From an uncultured Actinomycetota bacterium (GTDB taxonomy: Bacteria; Actinomycetota; Actinomycetes; Actinomycetales; Dermatophilaceae): a stretch of DNA of 24,000 nt. The notes under the pieces were generated by a model, which saw only the letters and a list, made by a program, of their open reading frames with translations, was not told the DNA's origin and made no database searches. Below, piece after piece: positions 1,938 to 16,467 of this stretch; the stretch's first letter is position 1, and every line of letters starts with the position of its first letter. The translations under genes were made by a program, and so were the position numbers. The DNA is taken from the NCBI GenBank assembly GCA_963834225.1, contig CAWIAT010000009.1, positions 450,992 through 474,991 on the forward strand, in the 5' to 3' direction.

Positions 1938-4934
1938 TCAGGTGCCGTAGAACGCGGCCTCGTGTGCCGCCCGGGAGTGGCGCGCCACCCGTCGGTACCG
2001 CTCCCCCAGCTCGTGGCCCGATCCTCCGGGCAGGCCGAGGATGCGGGCGATGCCGTCGGCGTCGCGCGGGTCGCTCGGCACGGCCTCGAGCGACTTGGCG
2101 CGAAAGAGCACCCCGGCGTTGCGCATCGACGACGCGAGCCGCCACGCCGCCGACAGGTCGACGGCGACCTGGGGGTCGACGAGGCCGAGGTGCTCGGCGG
2201 CCCGCAGCGCCCCCATCGTCGAGGTGGTCCGCAGCTCGGGGTGCTCGTGGGCGTGGCGCAGCTGGACGAGCTGGACGACCCACTCGACATCGGACAGGCC
2301 GCCGTGGCCGAGCTTGAAGTGCGTCTTGCGGTCGGCGCCGCGCGGGAGGCGCTCGGCCTCCATCCGGGCCTTGAGGGTGCGGATCTCGCGGACCTGGTCG
2401 GCGGTCAGGCCTCCCTCGGGCCAGCGGAGCGGGGCGATGAGCCCGAGGAAGCGCCGGCCCAGCTCCTCGTCGCCGGCGACCGGGGTGGCGCGCAGCAGGG
2501 CCTGCGCCTCCCACACGAGCGACCAGCGCCCGTAGTACTCGCGGTACGAGGCGAGGGACCGGACGAGCGGGCCGCTCTTGCCCTCGGGGCGCAGGGACGC
2601 GTCGACGTCGAGGTTGGGGTCGGGACCGCGCAGCCCGAGCAGCCGGATCAGCTCCCTGACGACCTCCATCGCCTGGGCCTGCGCCTCGTTCTCGTCGGCG
2701 CCGGGGACGGGGTCGTGGACGAGGATGACGTCGGCATCGGACCCGTACCCCTGTTCGGCTCCACCGAGGCGCCCCATCCCCACGATGAGCAGGCGCGTGA
2801 GCGCCGGTGCGCCGGAACGTTGTTCGGCGTCGTGCAGGCACACCTCGAGGGTCACCTCGAGCAGGGCGGACGTGAGGTCGGTCATGGCCGCGCCCAGGGC
2901 GTCGAGGGTCAGCGCCCCCGAGAGGTCGGCCACCGCGATCCGGAACAGCTCGGACCGGCGCACCGTCCGGGCGGCCAGCACGGCTGCCTCACGGTCGTCC
3001 TTGCGTCCGGCCGCCGAGCGCATCCGGCGCAGCACGTCGTCCCGCGAACGCGGCGTGAGGCCGGCCGAGTCGCCGAGGAACTGGACGCACTCCGGGGCCT
3101 GCTCGAGGAGGTCGGCGGCGAACCGGCTGCGAGCCAGGGTGTGCGCGAGCCGCTCGGCGGCCGAGCCCTCGTCGCGCAGCAGACGCAGGTACCAGTGGGT
3201 GGAGCCGAGCTCGTCACTGATCCGTCGGAACGCGAGCAGCCCCGCATCGGGGTCGGCCTCGTCGGCGAACCAGCCGAGCATGACGGGCAGGAGCTGGCGC
3301 TGGATGGCGGCGCGGCGGCTCAGGCCGTCGGTGAGCGCCTCGAGGTGCTTGAGGGCCCCGCGCGGGTCGCGGAAGCCGAGGGCCGACAACCGTTCGCGCG
3401 CGGCCTCGGGGGTCAGCCGGACCTCGGAGTCCGACAGCCGCGCGACGGCGGCGAGGAGGGGCCGGTAGAAGATGCGCTCGTGGAGCCGGCGCACCTCGCG
3501 CTTCTGGGTGCGCCACTGGGCGAGCACCGCCTCCCCCGGGGACGAGCGGTGGCCGAGGGCGCGGCCGAGGCGCCGCAGGTCGGACTCCGCGGTGGGCATC
3601 AGGTGGGTCCGGCGAAGCCGGAACAGCTGGATGCGGTGCTCGAGGGTGCGCAGCAGCCGGTAGGCCGACCCGAGGGTGGCGGCGTCCTCCCGGCCGACGT
3701 AGCCGCCCGCCGAGAGCGCCGCGAGGCCGTCGAGGGTGGTCCCCGTGCGCAGCGACTCGTCGGCGCGGCCGTGGACGAGCTGGAGCAGCTGGACCGAGAA
3801 CTCGACGTCGCGCAGCCCACCGGCCCCCAGCTTGATCTGGCGCTCGGCCTCGGCGGCGGGGATGTGCTGCTCGACGCGTCGGCGCATCGCCTGGACGTCG
3901 TCGACGAAGTTGTCCCGCGTGGAGGCCTGCCACACCATCGGCTGGACGGCGTCGAGGTAGGCGCGTCCCACCTCGGCGTCCCCGGCGACGGGACGCGCCT
4001 TGAGCAGCGCCTGGAACTCCCACGTCTTGGCCCAGCGCTCGTAGTAGGCACGGTGGCTGGCGACCGTGCGCACGAGCGGACCGTTCTTGCCCTCGGGGCG
4101 CAGCGCGGGGTCGACCTGCCACAGCGACCCGGTCGCCGTCGAGGCGGAGCAGATCCGCATGAGGCGGGTCGCGAGGTCGGTCGCCACCGCCGTCGAGTCC
4201 TCCTCCGCGACACCGTCGGCCGGCTCGGCGACGAAGATGACGTCGACGTCGGAGATGTAGTTGAGCTCGCAGCCCCCCGTCTTGCCCATCGCGATGACGG
4301 CCAGGCGCGTGCGCGAGGCGTCCTCCCCGACCTCGGCACGGGCGATGACGAGGGCGGCCTCCAGCGCCGCCTGGGCGAGGTCGGCCAGCGCGCCGGCGGT
4401 CTCGGGCAGCGTCTCGACCGGGTCGGGCGCCGTGAGGTCGAGCGCCGCGATCGACAGGAGCTGCTCGCGGTAGGCGGTGCGCAGCACGTCGACGGCAGGG
4501 GTCTCCCCCGGCTCGCTGACCGCGCCGACGAGGCGCTCGGCCCGCTGCTCGACGGTGAGCCGGGTCGCCTCGGTGACGGCCTGCCAGTGGTGGGGGTGCG
4601 CGCAGAGGTGGTCGCCGAGCGCCGCCGAGTTGCCGAGCACCGCGAGGAAGCGGTCACGGGCCGGGCCGGGGTCGGCGAGGGCGTCGGTGACCGGCCCCCG
4701 CAGCTCGGGACGGCGGGTCGCGACCTCCATGAATCGGACGAGCCCGAGGAGGGCGCCGTCGGGGTCGGACACCGACGCGAGGGCGGCGGCGAGCCCGTGC
4801 TCCTCGATGTGCTCGCGGGAGCGGATGAGGCCGGCCACCGCCGGGTCCTGGAGGAGGGCGTGGGCGCGCGCGGGGTCGTCGAATCCCAGCCGCGCGATGG
4901 CGACGGGGATGGAGCCGGGACCGCGGGAGCTCAT
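1938..4934 (-). CDS. glnE: Bifunctional glutamine synthetase adenylyltransferase/adenylyl-removing enzyme
   Basis: The 998-aa product starts at MSSRGPGSIPVAIARLGFDD (ATG at 4934) and ends ...AHEAAFYGT. It has two nucleotidyltransferase repeats with GlnE signatures (AMGKTGGCELNYISDVDVIFVA and GMGRLGGAEQGYGSDADVILVH). The start lies 5 nt after the glnA2 stop. The tracked 1478-aa ORF is an out-of-frame read-through over glnA2. Confidence 0.95.
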   Translation of the reverse strand: MSSRGPGSIPVAIARLGFDDPARAHALLQDPAVAGLIRSREHIEEHGLAAALASVSDPDGALLGLVRFMEVATRRPELRGPVTDALADPGPARDRFLAVLGNSAALGDHLCAHPHHWQAVTEATRLTVEQRAERLVGAVSEPGETPAVDVLRTAYREQLLSIAALDLTAPDPVETLPETAGALADLAQAALEAALVIARAEVGEDASRTRLAVIAMGKTGGCELNYISDVDVIFVAEPADGVAEEDSTAVATDLATRLMRICSASTATGSLWQVDPALRPEGKNGPLVRTVASHRAYYERWAKTWEFQALLKARPVAGDAEVGRAYLDAVQPMVWQASTRDNFVDDVQAMRRRVEQHIPAAEAERQIKLGAGGLRDVEFSVQLLQLVHGRADESLRTGTTLDGLAALSAGGYVGREDAATLGSAYRLLRTLEHRIQLFRLRRTHLMPTAESDLRRLGRALGHRSSPGEAVLAQWRTQKREVRRLHERIFYRPLLAAVARLSDSEVRLTPEAARERLSALGFRDPRGALKHLEALTDGLSRRAAIQRQLLPVMLGWFADEADPDAGLLAFRRISDELGSTHWYLRLLRDEGSAAERLAHTLARSRFAADLLEQAPECVQFLGDSAGLTPRSRDDVLRRMRSAAGRKDDREAAVLAARTVRRSELFRIAVADLSGALTLDALGAAMTDLTSALLEVTLEVCLHDAEQRSGAPALTRLLIVGMGRLGGAEQGYGSDADVILVHDPVPGADENEAQAQAMEVVRELIRLLGLRGPDPNLDVDASLRPEGKSGPLVRSLASYREYYGRWSLVWEAQALLRATPVAGDEELGRRFLGLIAPLRWPEGGLTADQVREIRTLKARMEAERLPRGADRKTHFKLGHGGLSDVEWVVQLVQLRHAHEHPELRTTSTMGALRAAEHLGLVDPQVAVDLSAAWRLASSMRNAGVLFRAKSLEAVPSDPRDADGIARILGLPGGSGHELGERYRRVARHSRAAHEAAFYGT

Positions 4935-4939
4935 GCCCG

Positions 4940-6277
4940 TCAGAGTCGGGGCAGGTAGCGCTCGAGCTCGAAGGCCGTCACGGTGTTGCGGTAGTCGTTC
5001 CACTCCGCCCGCTTGTTGCGCAGGAAGAAGTCGAAGGTGTGCTCCCCGAGCGTCTCGGCGACGAGCTCGCTGCTCTCCATCACCGTGATGGCCTCGCTGA
5101 GGCTGGCGGGCAGCGGCTTGATGCCCATGGCCCGGCGCTCGGCGTCGGTGAGGCTCCAGACGTCGTCCTCGGTCTCGGGCGGGAGCTCGTAGCCCTCCTC
5201 GATCCCCTTCATGCCTGCGGCGAGCAGGACGGCGAAGGAGAGGTAGGGGTTGCACGCGGGGTCGATGCTGCGGACCTCGACGCGGCTGCTGTTGCCCTTG
5301 TTCGGCTTGTACATCGGCACCCGGACCAGGGCCGACCGGTTGTTGTGGCCCCACGTGAGGTGGGCGGGGGCCTCGCCGCCGCCCCAGAGCCGCTTGTAGG
5401 AGTTGACCCACTGGTTGGTCACCGCGGTGATCTCGGCCCCGTGGTGGAGCAGGCCCGCGATGAACTGCCGGGCGACCTTGGACAGCTGGTAGGGCGACCC
5501 CGGCTCGTGGAAGGCGTTGGTGTCGCCCTCGAAGAGCGAGAGGTGGGTGTGCATCGCCGACCCGGGGTGCTCGGCGAACGGCTTGGGCATGAAGGAGGCG
5601 AAGATGCCCTGCTCGAGGGCGACCTCCTTGATGACGGCGCGGAAGGTCATGATGTTGTCGGCGGTCGACAGCGCGTCGGCGTAGCGCAGGTCGATCTCGT
5701 TCTGGCCCGGGGCGCCCTCGTGGTGGCTGAACTCGACCGAGATCCCCATCGTCTCGAGCATCGAGATCGCGGCCCGACGGAAGTCGTGGCTGTTGCCGTG
5801 CGGGACGTGGTCGAAGTAGCCGGCCTCGTCGATCGGCTCGGGTCGCTGCCCCGGGACCCAGCCCTGCTTGAGGAGGAAGAACTCGATCTCGGGGTGGGTG
5901 TAGAAGGTGAAGCCCTGGTCGGCGGCCTTGGTCAGGGCCCGCTGGAGGACGTGCCGCGGGTCGGCCATGCTCGGCGTGCCGTCGGGCATCGTGAGGTCGC
6001 AGAACATCCGGGCCGTGCCGGGGCTCTCGCCGCGCCAGGGCAGGACCTGGAAGGTGCTCGGGTCGGGCTTGGCGAGCATGTCGGCCTCGTAGACCCGCGC
6101 GAAGCCCTCGATGACCGACCCGTCGAAGCCGATGCCCTCGGCGAACGCCCCCTCGAGCTCGGCCGGCGCGATGGCCACCGACTTCAGCGTGCCGAGCACG
6201 TCGGTGAACCAGAGCCGGACGAACCGGATGTCGCGCTCTTCGATGGTGCGGAGGACGAACTCCTGCTGACGGTCCAT
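4940..6277 (-). CDS. glnA2: Glutamine synthetase, type I, GlnA2-like
   Basis: MDRQQEFVLRTIEERDIRFVRLWFTDVLGTLKSVAIAPAELEGAF... is near-identical in pattern to the mycobacterial GlnA2 N-terminus. The ATG at 6277 is preferred over the upstream GTG at 6295. The glnA2-glnE tandem is conserved actinobacterial synteny. Confidence 0.95.
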   Translation of the reverse strand: MDRQQEFVLRTIEERDIRFVRLWFTDVLGTLKSVAIAPAELEGAFAEGIGFDGSVIEGFARVYEADMLAKPDPSTFQVLPWRGESPGTARMFCDLTMPDGTPSMADPRHVLQRALTKAADQGFTFYTHPEIEFFLLKQGWVPGQRPEPIDEAGYFDHVPHGNSHDFRRAAISMLETMGISVEFSHHEGAPGQNEIDLRYADALSTADNIMTFRAVIKEVALEQGIFASFMPKPFAEHPGSAMHTHLSLFEGDTNAFHEPGSPYQLSKVARQFIAGLLHHGAEITAVTNQWVNSYKRLWGGGEAPAHLTWGHNNRSALVRVPMYKPNKGNSSRVEVRSIDPACNPYLSFAVLLAAGMKGIEEGYELPPETEDDVWSLTDAERRAMGIKPLPASLSEAITVMESSELVAETLGEHTFDFFLRNKRAEWNDYRNTVTAFELERYLPRL

Positions 6278-6337
6278 GGTCCGATCCTGCCGCACCGGTG
6301 AGTCCTGCGGGTGACACCGACATGCTCCGGACAGGGC

Positions 6338-6391: not shown

Positions 6392-8831
6392 TCAGGGCGT
6401 GACCGCCCGCGTGTCGATCCGGATGCGCACCGAGGTGCCGCTCTCCTTCAGGACCCGGATCTTCGTGCCGCTGCCCGCGACCGTGACGCCACCCGAGGGC
6501 TGGTCGGTCTTGAAGTAGCGGTTCGGTCTGCTGTCGTCGAACAGCGGTTGGGCGGCCTGGCCACGGATGTAGCTGGCCCTGCCGGTGAACTGGCTGTGCA
6601 GCGTGAACGAGTCGGCCTTCTGCAGACCGAACGTCGCGTCGTACATCTGGATGCGCGGCCGCCACGGGTCGCCGTCCAGCGTGTAGATCGAGCGCGGGTG
6701 TGCGTCGATCGGGAGCACGAGACCCTCACCGGGGTGCTGGCTCGTGTTGTTGTCGCCCTGGGAGGTGTCCCACAGGGAGATGAGCAGGCCGTCCTGGTAC
6801 GGGAAGTGCTCCACGAAGTCCGGCTTGTTGAGGAACCCGAAGTTGTACGGGCCGCTCTTGAGGTACTTGTCGTACGAGACGTACTCGCGGTTGCTCGCGA
6901 TGTAGAACCACGGGTAGTCCGTCGACGAGCTGGCCTCCACGGCCGAGAAGCCGTCGAGCGTCCACCCGTTGGAGCCGGACTCGGCGCCGTCCTCGAACAG
7001 CACCGTGGCACCGTTGGTGATCTTGAGAGCGTCGACGAAGATGCCCGACGGCGCGTCCGGGTTCTGCCCCTGGGCGGCACCGTCGGTCGCGTAGCGCACG
7101 CGCAGCCCGACCGACGTGCCGGCGTAGGCCGACAGGTCGAAGGTGGCGGGAGTCCACGCGGCCTGCTCGCCGTCGATGCCGTTGCCCTCGGCGGGGTTGG
7201 TGATCGACCCGGGCACGGCCTTGAAGCCGGTCCCGTCGTCGACCTCGACGAACGCGTAGTCACACGGGTCGGCCGCGCAGTCCTCGATGTTCCAGCGGGC
7301 CTGGAAGGACAGCGTGGAGGTACCGGCCGGCAGGGTCACCGAACGGGACATCGTCGCGTTGAGGTCGTCGCCGGCACCGGAGTACCACTGCTTGGTGCCC
7401 GCGAACGGGGCACCGAGCTCGGCGGTGACGGTCTTGTCCGGGAGGACGACCACGGCGGCCTGGGCCTTGGCGGAGTTGTACTCGTGCGGGCCGAGGTCGA
7501 GCACGCGGTTCTGGCCGGGGACGACCACCTCGTAGTCGAGCCAGCCGAGCTGGAGCTTGTCCCACGCGGACAGGTCAGCGGCCCGAGAGCCGATGGCGTT
7601 GTCACCCTTGGCCGACACGCGGCTCTGGGCCATCAGGGTCCACCAGTTGACGGGGTTCTCGTTGCGGGCCGAGGGCCCCGAGGTGTCGTAGTGGTCGGGC
7701 AGGCCGAGGTCGTGGCCGTACTCGTGCGCGACCACCGAGACGCCGCCGTTCTCGGGCTGGACGGTGTAGTCCGCCGCCCAGACCGAGCTGGTGCCGATCC
7801 GGGTTCCACCGAGGGCCGGGTACGGAGCGGCCGGGTCGGCCGCCTGGAAGGCACGCCAGCGGTGCGACCAGATGGCGTCCTCACCCTGGTACGGGTCGCC
7901 ATCGGCCTGGTCGCCACCCGCGTGGACGATCTGCAGGTGGTCGATGTAGCCGTCGGCCTCGTTGAAGTTGCCGTCGGCGTCCTTGTCGTAGCGGTCCCAG
8001 ATGTCGTACTGCTTGAGCGTCGCGTCGACCTGGGCGTCGGTCTTGCCGGCGGCCTTCTGCTGGGCGACCCAGGCGTTCATCCCGTCGCGCACGAGGTTCC
8101 AGGTGTTGCTGCACACGTTCGACGCGCAGGGGAAGCCGTCGCTCCGGCCGTACCTCGCCTCGTTGTACTGCACCATGACCGGCGCGGTGGCCATGCCCGC
8201 GACCGAGTAGCGGCCGGAGGACTGGCGCTCGTAGTACTGGCGCATCGACTCACGGCCCGTGACCTTGCCCGTGCCGAAGTACAGGTCCTGGTAGTAGGCC
8301 TGGTCGTAGTCGTCGTCCCAGTCGGTGCTGTTGTCCAGGGCACGGTTGGGCTCGGGGATCTCGTTGAACCGGGGACCGTCGAACCGGGTGGGGCCGGGGA
8401 TGTCCGGGTCGGTGTCCTGGTCGGGGTAGCTCGGGTGCCGCTGGTTCCCGAAGTCGACGACGAGGACGAAGAGCTTGTCGGTGGCCTCGCGCGCCACCTC
8501 GACGTACTGGTCCTTCTTCTTGGCCTTGGTGGCCGCGCGCCTCGAGTTCTTGGCCTTGGCCGCGGTCTCGCTCTCGCCGACCTTGACGACGGTGCTGCCG
8601 CCGCGCCTCTCGGCCTTGGCATCCCCCTTGAGGACGGAGGCGATGGCCTGCTCCCGCAAGCGCCGAGCGCTTGTCGGCGATCGGGTCAGGGAGCGAGTCG
8701 CTCGGCGGCGCCGTTGCCGGCTCCCCCCGGCTCGGTGTCGGTGCTGGTGCGGCGACACCGGGTGCGGCGATGGCCGTCCCGAGTCCCGAGGCGAGGGCTA
8801 CTGCGAGTAGCCCCACGGTTGTTCTGCGCAC
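6392..8831 (-). CDS. Secreted M6-family (immune inhibitor A-like) zinc metalloprotease, interrupted by an apparent 1-nt frameshift near 8651-8662
   Basis: The main frame (6392-8758 ORF) carries the M6 signature VVAHEYGHDLGLPDHYD (HEYGH encoded at 7712-7726). The signal peptide and mature N-terminus (GGAGGA-N4-GTG at 8831; VRRTTVGLLAVALASGLGTAIAAPG...DSLPDPIADKRSAL) are in a different frame (8250-8897 ORF). Homology resumes as (L)REQAIASVLKGDAKAE in the main frame. The total span is 2440 nt = 3x813+1. Confidence 0.85.
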
Positions 8832-10723: not shown

Positions 10724-10930
10724 TCAGTCTTCCTGCGACTCGGGGTCCCAGCTGCTGCCGGAGGCCCACTCCTTGTCCTCGCGGTCCCACTTCTCGGTGT
10801 TCTCGCGGGCCGAATGGAGCGCGTTCGCCGCGGCCTCCTCGCTGTCGTACGGACCCATGACGTTGGCGTCCTGGCTGCGGTCGTCGTCGGTCTCGACCTG
10901 GCCGGAGTCGACGTTGTACCAGTAGGGCAT
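10724..10930 (-). CDS. Small acidic conserved actinobacterial protein (68 aa), function unknown
   Basis: The sequence is MPYWYNVDSGQVETDDDRSQDANVMGPYDSEEAAANALHSARENTEKWDREDKEW.... A strong SD (GAGGAGGAA) lies just upstream of the ATG at 10930. The W/FYxVxTGxVE...GPY/F.S.EEA..AL pattern resembles small proteins seen in other actinobacteria, sometimes annotated SPOR-like. The upstream part of the 104-aa ORF looks non-coding. Confidence 0.6.
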   Translation of the reverse strand: MPYWYNVDSGQVETDDDRSQDANVMGPYDSEEAAANALHSARENTEKWDREDKEWASGSSWDPESQED

Positions 10931-10977
10931 CGGTTCCTCCTCGAATCGGGTGCTGCGGTCGTGCCTAGACTCACCGT

Positions 10978-11850
10978 ATGCCGTTGACGTACGCCTCCGT
11001 CGCCCCAGGGACGGTCTCTCCGCGCAGACCCGTCCCACCGAGCATCGAGCGACCCGAGTACGTCGACCGGCCGAGCCCTGCCCGCTACACCGGCCCCGAG
11101 GTCAAGGACGCCGAGACGATCGAGCGGATGCGCGTCGCCGGCCGGATCGCGGCCAACGCGATGGCCGCGGCGGCCGCCGTCATCGAGCCGGGCGTCACGA
11201 CCGACGAGATCGACCGGGTCGGCCACGAGTACCTGCTCGACCACGGCGCCTACCCCTCGACGCTGGGCTACAAGGCGTTCCCGAAGTCGCTGTGCACCTC
11301 GGTCAACGAGGTCGTGTGCCACGGCATCCCCGACGACCGGCGCCTCGAGGACGGCGACATCGTCAACATCGACATCACCGCGTTCATCGGGGGCGTCCAC
11401 GGCGACACCGACGCCACCTACCTCGTCGGCGAGGTCGACGAGGAGTCGCGCCTGCTGGTCGAGCGGACCGAGGAGGCGATGATGCGCGGCATCCGCGCCG
11501 CGCGCCCGGGCCGCGAGATCAACGTCGTCGGCCGGGTCATCGAGAGCTACGCCAAGCGGTTCGGCTACGGCGTCGTGCGCGACTTCACCGGGCACGGGAT
11601 CGGCACGGCGTTCCACAGCGGCCTCATCGTCCCGCACTACGACGCGGCGCCGCGGTACGACACCATCATCGAGGCGGGCATGACCTTCACGGTCGAGCCG
11701 ATGCTCAACCTCGGCACGCACGAGTGGGACATGTGGGACGACCGGTGGACGGTCGTCACGAAGGACCGGCGCCGGTCGGCACAGTTCGAGCACACCATCC
11801 TGGTCACCGACCACGGACCCGAGATCCTCACCCAGGGAGACGCAGCATGA
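10978..11850 (+). CDS. map: Methionine aminopeptidase, type Ic (with N-terminal PxxP extension)
   Basis: The 290 aa closely parallel M. tuberculosis MetAP1c: ...[16 protein letters not shown]..., [37 protein letters not shown] and [10 protein letters not shown]. Confidence 0.95.
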
Positions 11851-12626
11851 GCACCGGACACCCCCTCGGCATCGACGTCGGCGGCAGTGGCATCAAGGGC
11901 GCACCCGTCGACCTCGACAAGGGCGAGTTCGCCCGGAAGCGGCTGCGCATCGACACCCCTGACGTCTCGACCCCCGAGGCCGTCTGCGACGTCATCGCGC
12001 AGGTCGTCGACCACTTCGACGAGGTCCGCAGCGACTCCCCCATCGGGGTGACGATCCCCGGCGTCGTCCAGCACGGTGTCGTCAAGACCGCGGCGAACAT
12101 CGACAAGTCCTGGGTCGGCTGCGAGATCGAGAAGCTCCTCGAGGACCGCCTCCAGCACGACGTCGTCGTCGTCAACGACGCCGATGCCGCGGGGGTCGGC
12201 GAGCTGCACTTCGGTGCGGCGAAGGGCCACGAGGGCCTGGTCATCCTCACGACCCTCGGCACCGGTATCGGCACGGCCATCTTCAACCGCGGTGTGCTCG
12301 TGCCGAACTCGGAGCTCGGGCACCTCGAGATCGACGGCGTCGACGCCGAGACCATCGCCGCGTCGTCGGCGAAGACCCGTGAGGAGCTCACCTACCCGCA
12401 GTGGGCCGAGCGGCTCCAGCAGTACTACCGGCGCCTCGAGGACCTCCTGTGGCCCGACCTCATCGTCGTCGGCGGCGGGGTGTCCAAGGACGCCGACCAG
12501 TTCCTGCCGCTCCTCGACCTCCGCACGAAGATCATCCCGGCGACGCTGAAGAACAAGGCGGGCATCATCGGCGCCGCCGTCCTCGCGACCGGCGTGCAGA
12601 ACGAGCGCGGGCGCCACACCACCTGA
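11847..12626 (+). CDS. ppgK: Polyphosphate glucokinase (ROK family)
   Basis: The sequence reads [23 protein letters not shown]..., [21 protein letters not shown] and ELGHLEIDG. The ATG overlaps the map stop (ATGA). The product is 259 aa. Confidence 0.9.
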
Positions 12627-12649
12627 CCGGCGGCCGCCCGCCCGACGCG

Positions 12650-13309
12650 CTACTCCCCTGCGCGGAACTCGGTCGCGCCCTGCCCAGCCAGGTCGTGCAC
12701 CCGCGTGTCGGGCGACCCGAGCTGCCCCGCCTGGCCGAGGTAGAGCCCTCGACCGCGCGCCTGGAGCAGCCCGTCGTGCACCGGCACCGCGTGCGGTGAA
12801 CCGAACCGGCGCAGGAACGCCGTCATGTCGCGGCTGCGCTGCCACGGAGCCTGGAGCGGGAACGCGAGCACGTCGATGTCACCCGGCTCGGCGTCGAGGG
12901 CGTCGCCCGGGTGGAAGAACGACGGCTCGCCGTCGGCGTCGAGGCGCACCCCGACGTTGCTGATCCGCGGGATGTCGTCGTGGATGAGGGCGTGCTGCTC
13001 GCCGAAGGGCGTCACGGTGACGCCCCCCACCGTGCTCGCACCCCCGGCGTGCTCGCGCGCCTCGATGCCGAGCTTCGCCAGCACCTCGACGCTCTGCGGG
13101 TCGCAGAGGACGACGGCGCCCGGGTTGGCCGCGACGACCGACGGGAACCGGTCGGGGTCGAGGTGGTCGGGGTGCTGGTGGGTGACGAGGACGGCGTCGA
13201 GGTCGGTGACCCCGGAGAGGTCGTCGGAGAAGGCGCCCGGGTCGATGAGGATGCGGGTGTCGGCCATCTCCACGAGGAGGCAGGCGTGACCGAGGTGGGT
13301 GAGCAGCAT
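12650..13309 (-). CDS. MBL-fold metallo-hydrolase
   Basis: MLLTHLGHACLLVEMADTRILIDPG...VLVTHQHPDHLD carries the HxHxDH motif. The product is 219 aa from the ATG at 13309. The longer 341-aa ORF N-terminus is low-complexity and implausible. Confidence 0.85.
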   Translation of the reverse strand: MLLTHLGHACLLVEMADTRILIDPGAFSDDLSGVTDLDAVLVTHQHPDHLDPDRFPSVVAANPGAVVLCDPQSVEVLAKLGIEAREHAGGASTVGGVTVTPFGEQHALIHDDIPRISNVGVRLDADGEPSFFHPGDALDAEPGDIDVLAFPLQAPWQRSRDMTAFLRRFGSPHAVPVHDGLLQARGRGLYLGQAGQLGSPDTRVHDLAGQGATEFRAGE

Positions 13310-13394
13310 GTCCCCACCGTAGGCCGCCGAGCACGGCCGCAGCGGCCGAGGGTCCCGCCGAGGGCGAGCCGAGGTCAGGCGGCGCCGGAAGGCG

Positions 13395-14087
13395 TCAGCC
13401 GACGACCGGCTCGGCGCCGTTGCCCGAGCGGTCCCGTGCGGCGCCGGGAGGAGTCGCGCTCCTGACGGCGTCGACGGTGACCGCGGCCAGCCGCAGGTCG
13501 CGGGGCAGCACGGTCGTCGAGGGAGGGGGGGTCGGCAGTGCGTGGGCGCCCTCACCGGCGAGGAACAGCGGGACGCGCGCGCCGAGCCGCGACAGCGACG
13601 GCACCCGCGACTCGAAGGCCGAGCGCCGCACCCCCGCGAGGACGACGGCGTCGGCGCCGAGGAAGCGCACGGCATCGGCGACCGCCGTCATCGGGGTGTT
13701 GGCGCCGAGGCTGACGACGCGCCACCACCGGGCGTGGAGCATCGCGCCGAAGAGCTCGAGCGGCAGGTCGTGCAGCTCGCGCGGAGGGCAGGCGAGGACG
13801 ACGGTGCGCACCTGGCCGCCCTGGACGGGCATTCGCAGCTCGCCGAGGACGCCACGGAAGGCGCTGGAGACGAAGTGCTCGTGGAGCACCCCCAGCTCGC
13901 CGCTCTCCCAGCCGTCCCCGACCTCCTTGAGCACCGGCATGATGACGCGGGTCACGGTGTCGTCGACACCGGAGACGAGGAGGGACTGGAGCAGGGCGTC
14001 GCGCACCGTCCCGCCGTCGAGGTCGCGGACCGCGGCCATGACCGTCGCGCGCGCGTCGGCGGGGCCGAAGTGCGGCGACTCGCTCAT
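13395..14087 (-). CDS. Stand-alone cobalamin-binding photoreceptor-like protein (CarH/LitR C-terminal module, no HTH domain)
   Basis: The 230 aa from MSESPHFG align by eye to the T. thermophilus CarH light-sensing module. IMPVLKEVGDGWESGELGVLHEHFVSSAF contains the Wx9EH AdoCbl motif. VVLACPPRELHDLPLELFGAML...GADAVVLAGV corresponds to the ExHxxG-type lower-ligand His region and Rossmann B12-binding domain. No MerR-type HTH occurs upstream in any frame. An alternative start is at 14171. Confidence 0.8.
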   Translation of the reverse strand: MSESPHFGPADARATVMAAVRDLDGGTVRDALLQSLLVSGVDDTVTRVIMPVLKEVGDGWESGELGVLHEHFVSSAFRGVLGELRMPVQGGQVRTVVLACPPRELHDLPLELFGAMLHARWWRVVSLGANTPMTAVADAVRFLGADAVVLAGVRRSAFESRVPSLSRLGARVPLFLAGEGAHALPTPPPSTTVLPRDLRLAAVTVDAVRSATPPGAARDRSGNGAEPVVG

Positions 14088-14559
14088 CGGCGTCCCGCGA
14101 TCTGGCTGGGTTCCACGCCTGAACGGTACGGCACGAACACCCCCCTGAACGCTTGTCGCCGTCCGGGTCATCGCAGGTCAGGGCCCCCGACAGCGCCTCG
14201 ACACGGGGGTCCGGGCTCGTCCACTCGGCCGAAGGGGGCCGCCGTTCGGACGATCTGCGGGGAAAAAGTCGCCGTTCTCGCCCGCCGAGGTGGAACAGTC
14301 CTCCTCAGGTCGACCGACGGACCCCCTGCACCGGACGTCGACCACCGACCGGCACCAGTCCGGTCAAGGACCCCGGTGCGCCGGAGTCGCCGCGTTCCCC
14401 CTGCCCGCGGCGACACCAAACCGACGCACCGGGGTCGACCGCTGTCCGGGCCCGGGGCGAGGACCAGCGAGCGGCCGCTGCATCACCATCACGCTCGACA
14501 GGTGAGCGCCCAGACTTCCCCCTGGCGCGGGCGGTCGGCGGGTCGCCCATACTGACCGG

Positions 14560-15357
14560 ATGACGAGCAACGAGCATCCCCTCCGCACGTCGCTGGACGC
14601 CGCTTCGGGGGTCGACGAGGCCCGGCTGGTCGACGTCAGGCGGTGGAACCTGGGTCTGACGGTGCTCCACGCCGTTCAGGCGCTCGCCGTGCTGGTCCTC
14701 GCCTCGGACTTCGCCATCGACGTGTCCACGGCCTTCCCCGAGGGCCCGCCCGGCAGCCGTGTCCCACAACCCTCGGTTGCCTTCAGCGTGCCCATCGGCG
14801 TGGCCGTCGCCGCCTTCCTGGCGCTGGCTGCCCTCGACCACGGCGTGACGGCCACGGTGCTCCGCTCCCGTTACGAGGGCGACCTGACGGCCGGGATCAA
14901 CCGGTTCCGCTGGGTCGAGTACTCGTTCAGCGCCACGATCATGATCCTGCTCATCGCCTTCTACGCCGGGATCACCCAGGTTGCCGCTGCGATCACGATC
15001 ATCGGGAGCAACGTGGCGATGATCCTCTTCGGGTGGCTCCAGGAGCGCATGAACCCGCCCGGCCGCGCGTCGACCACGATGCTGCCGTTCTGGTTCGGTT
15101 GCATCGCCGGTGCCGCCCCGTGGGTCGCGATCACCCTCAACATCGTCGGGTCCGAGACGGTCCCCGGCTTCGTCTACGGCATCTTCATCTCGCTGTTCGT
15201 GTTCTTCATGTCCTTCGCCCTCAACCAGTACCTGCAGTACCGCCAAGTCGGTCCATGGCGCTCCTACGCCTTCGGGGAGAAGGTGTACCTGGTGCTGAGC
15301 CTGGGCGCGAAGTCCGCGCTCGCCTGGCAGATCTTCGCTGGATCCCTGGCTGGGTGA
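14560..15357 (+). CDS. Heliorhodopsin (inverted-topology microbial rhodopsin)
   Basis: The 265 aa show block-wise near identity to heliorhodopsin 48C12: FRWVEYSFSATIMILLIA, MILFGWLQER, LPFWFGCIAGAAPW, VPGFVYGIFISLFVFFMSFALNQYLQY and YLVLSLGAKSALAWQIFAGSL. The Schiff-base Lys (K251, codon 15310-15312), counterion Glu (E120 in RWVEYS) and the two conserved His (H37, H94) are all present. Confidence 0.9.
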   Translation: MTSNEHPLRTSLDAASGVDEARLVDVRRWNLGLTVLHAVQALAVLVLASDFAIDVSTAFPEGPPGSRVPQPSVAFSVPIGVAVAAFLALAALDHGVTATVLRSRYEGDLTAGINRFRWVEYSFSATIMILLIAFYAGITQVAAAITIIGSNVAMILFGWLQERMNPPGRASTTMLPFWFGCIAGAAPWVAITLNIVGSETVPGFVYGIFISLFVFFMSFALNQYLQYRQVGPWRSYAFGEKVYLVLSLGAKSALAWQIFAGSLAG

Positions 15358-16019
15358 GGCAGGCCGACCACGAACGGGTGAGAGGTGCGGCGCCTCCGGA
15401 CGGTGGCACCGGGCCCGGAACCACCACCCGACCCGAGGCGAGGCGAGGACGCCCTGCGCTCGTGGTCCGGTACGGCGCCCTGGTGGACGAGTCGGGCTGT
15501 AGGCCGGGTTTGGCTCAACACGGTTGGTATTGATGCCGTCCAGGACGCGCCACACGGCCGGCGGGCGAAACCGGGCCCGTGCGTGTGCCGCGAGGCCGGT
15601 GGCCGAGGGCCATAGGAGTGCGGCGCCAGTTCCCGCCGCGATCGCCCATCGGGCCGAGGTGTTGGCGCAGACGTCGGTATGGCTGTACCTCGTGTCGTGG
15701 CTGACATTCGGCCTCCTGCGCCCACGGGCCGGGTCCCCACACTCGTCGCCGGCGCTTCCTGACGGCGGCGCGAATAAGGCAAGCCAGGTCGTCCCTAGCG
15801 CCCCACGGGCGTCAGAACCCTGACCCGGCCAGGTCAGGGAGGCGGCTCGAGGAGGTCGCCTGCCCGGGACAAGGTCTCGCGGGCCTGGCGGACCGTCGCC
15901 GGTCGAGCATCGCCCCATCCGCACCCCGGACGGCACCGTCGCCACTCGCGAGCCCCGCCTGGTAGGAGGCGACGACCTGTCGGGCTGCCCACAACTCGGC
16001 GCGCGTGACGTCACGGCGC

Positions 16020-16415
16020 TGCGCCACGAGAGCACCAGGCCCGACCCGACGACGATGCCGACGAGCGCGGTCCGCGAGGGGCGCGAGCCGAGGGCAAGCC
16101 CGATCGCGAGCGCCCACAACGGCATGCTGGCAATGAGGAGGGAGGCGAGCCCGCTGTCGACGTGCTGCTGTCCCAAGGTGAGCAGGGTGCTGCCGCCCCC
16201 CACGAGGAGGAGCCCCACGAGCGCGGCCGACCGCACCTCCCTGGCGTCCGGCCAGACGCGGCGGCCGAGCAGGGCGGCGCCACGAGGATGAGGGTGCCGG
16301 CCGTGAGGAAGCGTGAGCTCGTGAGCAGCATCGGGGGCAGGGACTCCAGCGCCACCTTGTTGCCGACGTACGTCCCGCCCCACAGGAGGTAGACCCCCAT
16401 GAGCGCGAGCGCCAC
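16020..16415 (-). pseudogene. EamA/DMT-family transporter remnant (frameshifted, 3' half missing)
   Basis: From the GTG at about 16415, the first frame reads VALALMGVYLLWGGTYVGNKVALESLPPMLLTSSRFLTAGTLILVA. At about 16275-16285 the reading switches to another frame: ALLGRRVWPDAREVRSAALVGLLLVGGGSTLLTLGQQHVDSGLASLLIASMPLWALAIGLALGSRPSRTALVGIVVGSGLVLSW. Only about 135 aa (one 5-TM EamA repeat) are recognisable, and similarity ends near 16020. Confidence 0.65.
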
Positions 16416-16467
16416 TGCCCCACCCCGCGCCGAGGGGTGCGGGGTCAGGTGGGTGGCATTCGTCGTC

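Follow-up and report, generated by a model that had tools for sequence, protein, structure and literature searches.

A heliorhodopsin gene inserted beside a conserved operon for a CarH-type B12-binding protein in Dermatophilaceae: probably two independent light-related genes

In a 24,000-nucleotide stretch of DNA from an uncultured member of the Dermatophilaceae (Actinomycetota; contig CAWIAT010000009.1 of assembly GCA_963834225.1), which is called the window here, a gene for a cobalamin (B12)-binding protein of the CarH type and a gene for a heliorhodopsin (HeR) lie head-to-head, separated by a gap of 472 bp (14088-14559). An earlier note on this DNA, made from the letters alone, had proposed the pair as a light-sensing locus with two chromophores. 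Its identification of the two genes and the coordinates of their divergent arrangement are confirmed, and the assignment of both genes to their families is much stronger than chance could produce. The B12 gene is followed on its own strand by a gene for a metallo-β-lactamase (MBL)-fold hydrolase, and the HeR gene lies next to a short remnant of rnpB, the gene for RNase P RNA. The analysis indicates that the two light-related genes are probably independent of each other and were joined by a recent insertion of the HeR gene, and that they do not form an evolved two-gene unit. The positions of the individual features are collected in Table 1.

The B12 gene encodes a protein of 230 amino acids with matches to the Pfam families B12-binding_2 (PF02607, E=5e-11) and B12-binding (PF02310, E=1e-6), the latter with 28.7 bits, which is under Pfam's own cut-off of 32.1 bits. 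In the Pfam annotation and in the AlphaFold2 (AF2) model these two domains account for all 230 residues. No helix-turn-helix (HTH) or DNA-binding domain was found in the protein by Pfam or NCBIfam, and the NCBIfam CarH model is matched only at profile positions 98-251 of 274, i.e., over its C-terminal two thirds, and scores 68.6 bits where the cut-off is 400. The stop-to-stop frame of the gene ends at 14177, and an alternative ATG at 14171 adds 28 residues; because at most 30 extra codons are open there, an HTH cannot lie upstream in frame. The absence of a DNA-binding domain, as stated in the earlier note, is thus borne out. A globin-like biliverdin-binding domain was not found in the protein either.

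The residues W60-x9-E70-H71 (Wx9EH motif) and E104-L-H106-D-L-P are invariant among 20 orthologues, so that both the Wx9EH motif and the lower-ligand histidine are kept; across 72 diverse homologues H71 is invariant and W60 and E70 are at least 90% conserved. In the lower-ligand motif ELHDLP, E104 and H106 are conserved and the last position is Pro109, not the Gly of the ExHxxG motif. W60 is followed by the nearly invariant Glu61, which aligns with the W-H of Thermus thermophilus CarH (TtCarH), i.e., with the position of His132. We take His132, beside the Trp, to be the second histidine that caps the cobalt after photolysis, an assumption with which the titles of H132A entries are consistent.

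The AF2 model, built from a 72-sequence alignment, has a pLDDT of 93.5 and a pTM of 0.87. Its best Foldseek matches are the cobalamin-binding domains of TtCarH/LitR (8C31, 8C73, 5C8D; E ~1e-13, TM 0.7-0.84), followed by the B12 domain of a Chloracidobacterium MerR-family protein and then by photocobilin, of which entry 8J2X aligns over the B12 part only (TMt 0.53). A sequence profile search against the PDB gave the same ranking, with CarH/LitR at E~1e-14 and methionine synthase far behind. When 1.8 billion cluster representatives were searched exhaustively, the relatives with ~40% identity comprised stand-alone proteins of ~220 residues and proteins of ~300 residues with an N-terminal MerR HTH. 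Fusions of the B12 protein to an MBL domain or to HeR were considered and rejected; homologues of greater length are either fused to MerR or artefacts of read-through. A search for the B12 gene on plasmids gave no match. The window protein shares with CarH/LitR (T. thermophilus CarH, PDB 5C8D, 8C31) the four-helix bundle, the Rossmann B12-binding domain, the Wx9EH motif and the E-x-H lower ligand, but it differs in Glu61 and ELHDLP and in the lack of a MerR HTH. Sequence and predicted fold thus identify it as a light-sensing module of the CarH type minus the DNA-binding head, and not as CarH proper.

A non-photosensory role, as a corrinoid carrier or methyl-transfer protein, is suggested by automatic Joint Genome Institute (JGI) names such as 'methanogenic corrinoid protein MtbC1' and by weak NCBIfam matches to MtgC and MetH (E ~1e-3). 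This assignment is very improbable, because in both sequence and fold the top matches are to CarH/LitR and photocobilins rather than to MetH or corrinoid proteins, Wx9EH does not vary, the closest relatives of greater length are CarH-type regulators with a MerR HTH, and no methyltransferase partner genes are found in the B12-MBL operon.

B12-binding proteins without an HTH are known from purple bacteria, in which AerR/PpaA act as antirepressors of CrtJ/PpsR (PMC9144470). The window protein resembles them in that it also lacks a DNA-binding domain and must therefore act by protein contact. It differs from them in its nearest sequence relatives, which are MerR-CarH proteins, and in its host, which is a non-phototrophic actinobacterium. 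The genes of the window with Pfam annotation include none of the CrtJ/PpsR type, and neither in the window nor in 43 orthologous loci does a regulator gene adjoin the B12 gene; its neighbours are the genes for the MBL hydrolase, ROK and methionine aminopeptidase (MAP), and rnpB. Photocobilins (PDB 8J2W/8J2X; PMC10979010) combine B12 with biliverdin and illustrate how stand-alone CarH-like modules regulate enzymes by protein contact. Like the window protein they contain a CarH-like B12 module without a DNA-binding domain, and they set a precedent for the combination of B12 with a second chromophore. However, their second chromophore is housed in a globin-like domain that is part of the photocobilin chain itself, whereas the HeR of the window is a separate membrane protein encoded by a recently inserted gene.

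The B12 protein would bind adenosylcobalamin (AdoCbl) in the dark, with His106 as the lower ligand and the Wx9EH motif lining the upper face. Green or UV light would cleave the Co-C bond and change the conformation or the oligomeric state of the protein, which would then signal by contact with another protein, most plausibly the co-transcribed hydrolase or an unlinked regulator. In clade 1 of this B12 protein family, to which the window protein belongs, a variable linker is followed by a conserved C-terminal tail, (A/S)EP(A/V)(V/L)G (residues ~224-230; window 13395-13415, minus strand). The tail falls into a low-confidence part of the AF2 model, is missing in a protein of the sister clade 2 (locus L051), and could be a short docking motif.

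The HeR gene encodes 265 amino acids and matches Pfam PF18761 with E=1e-99 and 333 bits (cut-off 26.7) and the NCBIfam model NF038020 with 275.5 bits (cut-off 100) over all of its profile positions (1-244 of 244). Residues H37, H94, E120 and K251 are invariant among 20 homologues. We assume that they match H23 and H80 in transmembrane helices (TM) 1 and 2, the counterion E107 in TM3, and the Schiff-base lysine K241 in TM7 of HeR 48C12. Glu107 has been named as the HeR counterion (PMC10434121). By these sequence hallmarks, the gene encodes a bona fide heliorhodopsin, which is presumably a retinal-based regulatory photoreceptor. The nearest named HeRs belong to Nocardioides, Aeromicrobium, Geodermatophilus and Egicoccus and not to Dermatophilaceae. 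The closest HeR homologues (82-94% identity, with 92%, 88% and 82% among them) are located in unrelated neighbourhoods, one of which is flanked by insertion sequences (IS).

The neighbourhood of the B12 gene was scanned with one genome per species, which yielded 43 orthologous loci, all in Dermatophilaceae (Oryzobacter, Phycicoccus, Ornithinibacter, Tetrasphaera, Nostocoides and Fodinibacter). In none of them was a HeR gene found in the 8 kb that flank the B12 gene to the left and to the right. Instead, the MBL hydrolase gene follows the B12 gene directly and on the same strand in 41 of the 43 species, and ROK and MAP come after it. The median gap between the B12 stop codon and the MBL start is 19 nt in this set; in the window it is 85 nt. 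The hydrolase keeps an intact HxHxDH motif, which reads THQHPDH in the translation. Co-transcription of the two genes, which the earlier note had considered possible, is probable on the basis of this arrangement. The conserved partner of the B12 gene is thus the MBL hydrolase and not the HeR, and it also differs from the carotenoid genes that accompany CarH/LitR.

Table 1. Features of the window and of the related loci used for comparison. Loci are given by their handles; an empty cell means that no value applies or was recorded.
Feature	Locus	Position	Strand	Basis or remark
MBL-fold (Lactamase_B_3) hydrolase, conserved operon partner of the B12 gene	window	12650-13309	-	Pfam PF13483, E=4e-18
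HTH-less CarH-type cobalamin-binding protein, 230 aa	window	13395-14087	-	Pfam, motifs, AF2, Foldseek, PDB profile matches
B12-side upstream region, also in HeR-less relatives	window	14088-14465		aligned to L044 (94.5%) and L045 (91%)
Candidate -10 hexamer TACCGT of a putative B12-MBL promoter	window	14123-14128	-	35 nt upstream of ATG
HeR-carrying insert, ~1015 bp, between rnpB 3' end and B12 upstream region	window	14466-15480		alignment with L044, L001 and L051
Candidate -10 hexamer CATACT of a putative HeR promoter	window	14548-14553	+	6 nt before ATG
Heliorhodopsin, 265 aa	window	14560-15357	+	Pfam PF18761, NCBIfam HeR equivalog NF038020, invariant residues
Remnant of the rnpB (RNase P RNA) 3' end, 30 nt	window	15481-15510	-	identical to rnpB 3' ends of L044 and L001
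Intact rnpB	L001	7220-7606		Rfam
Intact rnpB	L044	7062-7448		Rfam
Intact rnpB	L045	4817-5202		Rfam
Intact rnpB	L137	7515-7895		Rfam
Clade-2 B12 gene	L051			HeR 1.5 kb from B12 gene
Clade-2 B12 gene	L131			HeR 3.4 kb upstream of B12 gene; MarR, TerC and baeRF3 genes between
Clade-2 B12 gene	L136			HeR 2.3 kb downstream of B12 gene
Clade-2 B12 gene	L145			HeR 6.6 kb downstream of B12 gene; HeR cut by contig end
Clade-2 B12 gene	L132			no HeR in the locus sequence examined; IS110 adjoins B12 gene
Clade-2 B12 gene	L143			no HeR in the locus sequence examined

In the relatives, the seemingly empty region of ~0.5 kb upstream of the B12 gene contains a highly conserved sequence that was identified as RNase P RNA (284-298 bits in Rfam). 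In the four loci L001, L044, L045 and L137, rnpB is located between the gene for RNase II and the B12 gene, and the ancestral, family-wide gene order is RNase II, rnpB, B12, MBL. Depending on the genome, RNase II and the B12 gene are 0.5-5.5 kb apart, and the interval from rnpB to the B12 gene spans ~0.1-5 kb. The cargo found in this interval elsewhere comprises genes of the arginine deiminase pathway, permeases, two tyrosine (phage-type) integrases, an IS110 transposase, NYN, BNR and two-component genes and, in one lineage, a PIN toxin-antitoxin pair; light-related cargo was not found at this site in the other genomes. Because the interval varies in length and its cargo is unrelated, the site just past rnpB is an insertion hotspot.

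By comparison of the genomes, the resident unit of this site is a probable bicistronic B12-MBL operon, present across Dermatophilaceae just downstream of rnpB. The HeR cassette of ~1 kb was inserted immediately past the 3' end of rnpB, a position that is occupied by unrelated cargo in other genomes. The closest relative found (L044) aligns with the window at 94.5% DNA identity from position 5364 to exactly 14465 and again over 15317-15510, and it has no counterpart of 14466-15316. It keeps the last 12 codons of the HeR gene and the stop codon (LAWQIFAGSLAG before the stop), which argues that the HeR gene was deleted in this genome. The alignment with the next relative (L045, 91%) breaks at 14465 too, with other DNA beyond this point. 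An empty site is present in O. terrae (L001), in which the rnpB end is followed by ~20 nt and then by the same B12 upstream region. The core of the insert (14504-15383) is 88.7% identical at the DNA level to L051, where it occupies a different genomic context. Together, these alignments show an insertion of the HeR gene behind the rnpB 3' end and its later loss in the nearest sampled relative. Since this relative has lost it, the HeR cassette is dispensable, and it is not conserved beside the B12 gene.

Of rnpB itself, just the last 30 nt are present; the rest was not found in the window, and the sequence past 15510 is unrelated to that of the relatives. Because rnpB is essential, an intact copy must lie elsewhere in the genome. 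The remnant and its unrelated flank suggest a further rearrangement or an att-like duplicate, and the fragment may have been left by an integrative element that targets the rnpB 3' end. When target-site duplications or terminal inverted repeats were looked for around the insert, the matches were all short and imperfect, such as a repeat of 12 nt at 14453 and 15439. Two other genomes carry the phage-type integrases mentioned above between rnpB and the B12 gene.

The earlier note had described the 472-bp gap as an intergenic region shared by the two genes, but the gap turned out to be composite: 378 bp are B12 upstream sequence, which occurs in genomes with and without HeR, and the other 94 bp are part of the HeR insert. 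Positions 14163-14455 are found at 86% identity in the HeR-less O. terrae, directly 3' of its rnpB. The clade-1 B12 genes have a TAnnnT hexamer within ~70 nt before the start codon, mostly at ~35-45 nt (TAGCGT, TACCGT, TAGGGT, TATGGT), which provides the candidate -10 box of the B12-MBL operon. On the other side, ATACTG is invariant in seven HeR loci from unrelated contexts, at a similar position before the start codon. The position of this candidate -10 box would imply a leaderless HeR mRNA, as is typical in actinobacteria, and the HeR cassette would then bring its own leaderless promoter. Transcription is accordingly predicted to start at 14560 for the HeR gene and near 14116 for the B12 gene. 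The two candidate -10 boxes, which are both derived solely from cross-locus alignment, are ~420 bp apart. No shared motif was seen in the upstream regions of HeR and B12 genes, and a scan of 12500-15700 for consensus sigma-70 promoters and terminators found nothing.

A riboswitch or small RNA in the gap was considered and rejected (no credible Rfam match; fold z-score -1.6), and so was a repeat or element of the MITE (miniature inverted-repeat transposable element) type in the B12 upstream spacer, which occurs at orthologous positions only. About 170 nt of this spacer (window ~14290-14460; L001 ~7640-7800) are nearly identical by eye, compared with 86% over the whole spacer. They include a long perfect hairpin, GACCCCGGTGCGTCGG...CCGGCGCACCGGGGTC enclosing GTCGCCGCG...CGCGGCGAC, and this stretch is possibly the terminator of rnpB or else some element not yet recognised.

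The search for co-location was extended to 85 HeR loci with 494 kb of sequence, corresponding to ~45 complete windows of +/-3.5 kb, which were scanned with a hidden Markov model based on 136 CarH-like proteins, both stand-alone and fused to MerR. A CarH-like gene was detected at one of the 85 loci (L051), in agreement with published frequencies of 0.7-2%. The HeR of L051 is 89% identical to the window HeR, its B12 protein is 61% identical to that of the window, and no MBL gene follows. At third codon positions, the HeR genes of the window and L051 have an identity of 0.82 and their B12 genes one of 0.49, from which it follows that the HeR gene moved laterally. The lateral movement of the HeR gene, its absence from all 43 orthologous B12 loci and the separate candidate promoters all speak against an evolved unit in the window lineage.

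The B12 protein of L051 belongs to clade 2, which is equidistant from all members of clade 1, and it is in this clade that the picture is less simple. A HeR gene is located within 7 kb of the B12 gene in four of six clade-2 contexts (Table 1), in a sample that is small, in which L051 was found because both genes are present and the HeR loci of L131, L136 and L145 are interrelated. Co-occurrence as proposed in the earlier note therefore has a divided outcome: it fails in the orthologous loci, in the two closest relatives, from which the pair is missing, and at the HeR loci at large, and it appears in clade 2. The HeRs of L131, L136 and L145 represent a second type, which is 46% identical to the window HeR and 92-97% identical among the three. 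The block of ~1.1 kb that carries this HeR stands to the left of a MarR-TerC-baeRF3-B12 block in L131 (2741-3834) and to the right in L136 (5972-7034), in the same orientation. It behaves like a small mobile cassette, as the window HeR does, and it has no recognisable mobility gene. In three clade-2 loci (L131, L136 and L143), the B12 gene is preceded by a baeRF_family3 gene of the same orientation. Clade-2 B12 genes (L131 ~6950-7000, L132, L136, L143, L133) also have a TAGCCT -10-like box followed by a near-perfect palindrome, GACGTCATCCGC...GCGGATGACGC, before the start, which may be an operator or a hairpin of the 5' untranslated region.

Several points weigh against the independence of the two genes. 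Co-location in clade 2 involves two HeR types and exceeds the ~0.2-0.4% per locus predicted by uniform random placement, an excess that could reflect selection for linkage. Juxtaposition of HeR and B12 genes arose apparently independently at least three times, in the window lineage, in L051 and in the L131/L136/L145 group. Moreover, HeRs work through partners that are encoded in their neighbourhood. AbHeR is paired with glutamine synthetase, which an actinobacterial HeR binds and regulates (PMC9529153), TfHeR with a photolyase (PMC9769723), and OcHeR with the OmrDE ABC transporter (PMC11109279); all three of these partners, each encoded beside the HeR gene, are regulated by HeRs. These observations can be explained by a coupled sensor with two chromophores, in which the soluble B12 protein binds to the cytoplasmic face of the HeR or relays its state to a regulator of HeR expression. 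Such coupling would be in line with recurrence in two B12 clades and with the ability of stand-alone B12 photoreceptors to act via protein contacts, and the window likewise places a HeR gene beside the gene for a possible protein partner. We nevertheless consider it unlikely. The known partners are co-operonic and recurrent within HeR groups, whereas the window genes are divergent, ~0.5 kb apart and not conserved as a pair; the pair is missing in 43 of 43 clade-1 species, and the nearest relative has lost HeR with the B12-MBL genes intact. Arrangement, distance and orientation differ from case to case and never amount to one operon, and the upstream regions have neither close candidate promoters nor a motif in common. 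In L131, the gene for TerC, a known HeR neighbour, is placed between both genes and could be the real attraction.

The earlier note was too strong in calling the pairing undescribed. Chazan et al. (bioRxiv 10.1101/2021.02.16.431466) analyzed thousands of HeR neighbourhoods and found cobalamin-binding, photolyase and PAS proteins above background, with cobalamin-binding proteins being rare near HeR and showing the same association with proton pumps. In Dataset S3 of that study, PF02310 is present in 18 of 876 windows around actinobacterial group-A HeRs (2.05%) and PF02607 in 6 of 876 (0.68%), the latter at a median distance of 1.5 genes and in 5 of 6 cases in an orientation compatible with co-regulation. 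Tested against the genome background, these counts have P values between 1e-9 and 1e-20; compared with the neighbours of pumps, they show no significant difference. The counts were made at the Pfam-family level, at which HTH-less and MerR-fused forms are not separated. According to Kim et al. 2024 (PMC11109279), the ten groups of neighbours that frequently share an operon with HeR include MerR-family regulators and TerC, and B12 is not mentioned by Bulzu et al. (PMC8612252). Thus, the association of HeR with cobalamin-binding neighbours is already described in the literature, and a physical coupling of retinal and B12 is not. For a coupled sensor the published data cut both ways, because the enrichment of B12-binding_2 proteins near actinobacterial HeRs is what coupling would predict, but an association that extends to proton pumps is not specific for HeR.

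The opposite extreme, in which HeR cassettes and B12 genes meet in flexible genome regions by pure coincidence and without any functional link, is highly doubtful. It gains from the position of the clade-1 B12 gene next to the rnpB hotspot and from the IS110 and toxin-antitoxin genes near clade-2 loci. A few dozen hotspots per genome would lead to an expected meeting rate of 1-2%, which compares well with one case in ~45 windows and with the published 0.7-2%. However, four of six clade-2 contexts with two unrelated HeR types are well above 2%, and the enrichment of photolyase and PAS families near rhodopsins points to a light-related theme. The tendency of HeR and CarH-type B12 genes to lie near each other is weak and recurrent, but real. 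It fits with common light-related regulation, with residence in flexible regions (for which a hotspot-limited null predicts ~1-2%) or, less likely, with direct coupling. Across Actinobacteria, the proximity of HeR to CarH-type B12 genes, which is rare and yet commoner than a uniform background predicts, is best explained by one of the first two, and for the window we continue to favour two independent light-related genes brought together by insertion.

Other parts of the window, which has a G+C content of ~71%, contribute further observations. The identity of its proteins to those of O. terrae is 96.5% for MAP and 86% for the B12 protein, which places the source of the DNA among the relatives of Oryzobacter (Dermatophilaceae/Intrasporangiaceae). 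A cobalamin riboswitch (Rfam RF00174, 84 bits) at 299-512 on the minus strand precedes a gene at 1-~160 (minus strand) that is truncated by the left end of the window and whose N-terminus (MTTITQAPAPTRTMQVRKRNGDAEPVDVNKIVRAV...) resembles, by eye, the ATP-cone of ribonucleotide reductase. The riboswitch implies that the organism senses AdoCbl, which bears on the cofactor supply of the B12 protein. Glutamine synthetase (4940-6295, minus strand) and GlnE (1938-4940, minus strand) are encoded ~8 kb from the HeR gene. Because this glnA-glnE block is part of a conserved synteny that exists without HeR, its proximity is probably a coincidence. A small open reading frame without Pfam match (10724-11038, minus strand) adjoins MAP throughout the family, and its counterpart is a 68-aa gene in L044 (11114-11320) and L137 (11149-11355). 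To the right of the HeR gene, an EamA-transporter domain at ~15984-16430 (minus strand) is split over two frames, with Pfam EamA matches in both pieces, and is a frameshifted pseudogene remnant in rearranged DNA.

Partners of HeRs are being identified singly, from individual gene neighbourhoods. On at least three occasions, a HeR cassette of one type or the other came to lie, or was retained, 0.5-7 kb from a member of the HTH-less B12 family. That actinobacterial HTH-less Wx9EH B12 proteins serve as soluble partners or light-gated regulators of heliorhodopsins, in a retinal-plus-cobalamin system with two chromophores on separate proteins, is distinctly doubtful. If true, the partnership of a HeR with a B12 photoreceptor would join the two light-sensing chemistries of non-phototrophic bacteria that use neither flavins nor bilins. 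The window locus is weak evidence for such a partnership, because its HeR gene is a recent hotspot insertion that is not conserved and was lost in the nearest relative. The sister-clade loci L051, L131, L136 and L145 with their recurrent linkage are better test material, and the window genome and L044 form a natural pair that differs by the deletion of HeR. The conserved B12-MBL operon, in turn, represents an uncharacterised B12 sensor without DNA-binding domain and with a candidate enzyme output, and by analogy to photocobilins it may encode a light-switched hydrolase that is controlled by protein contact.

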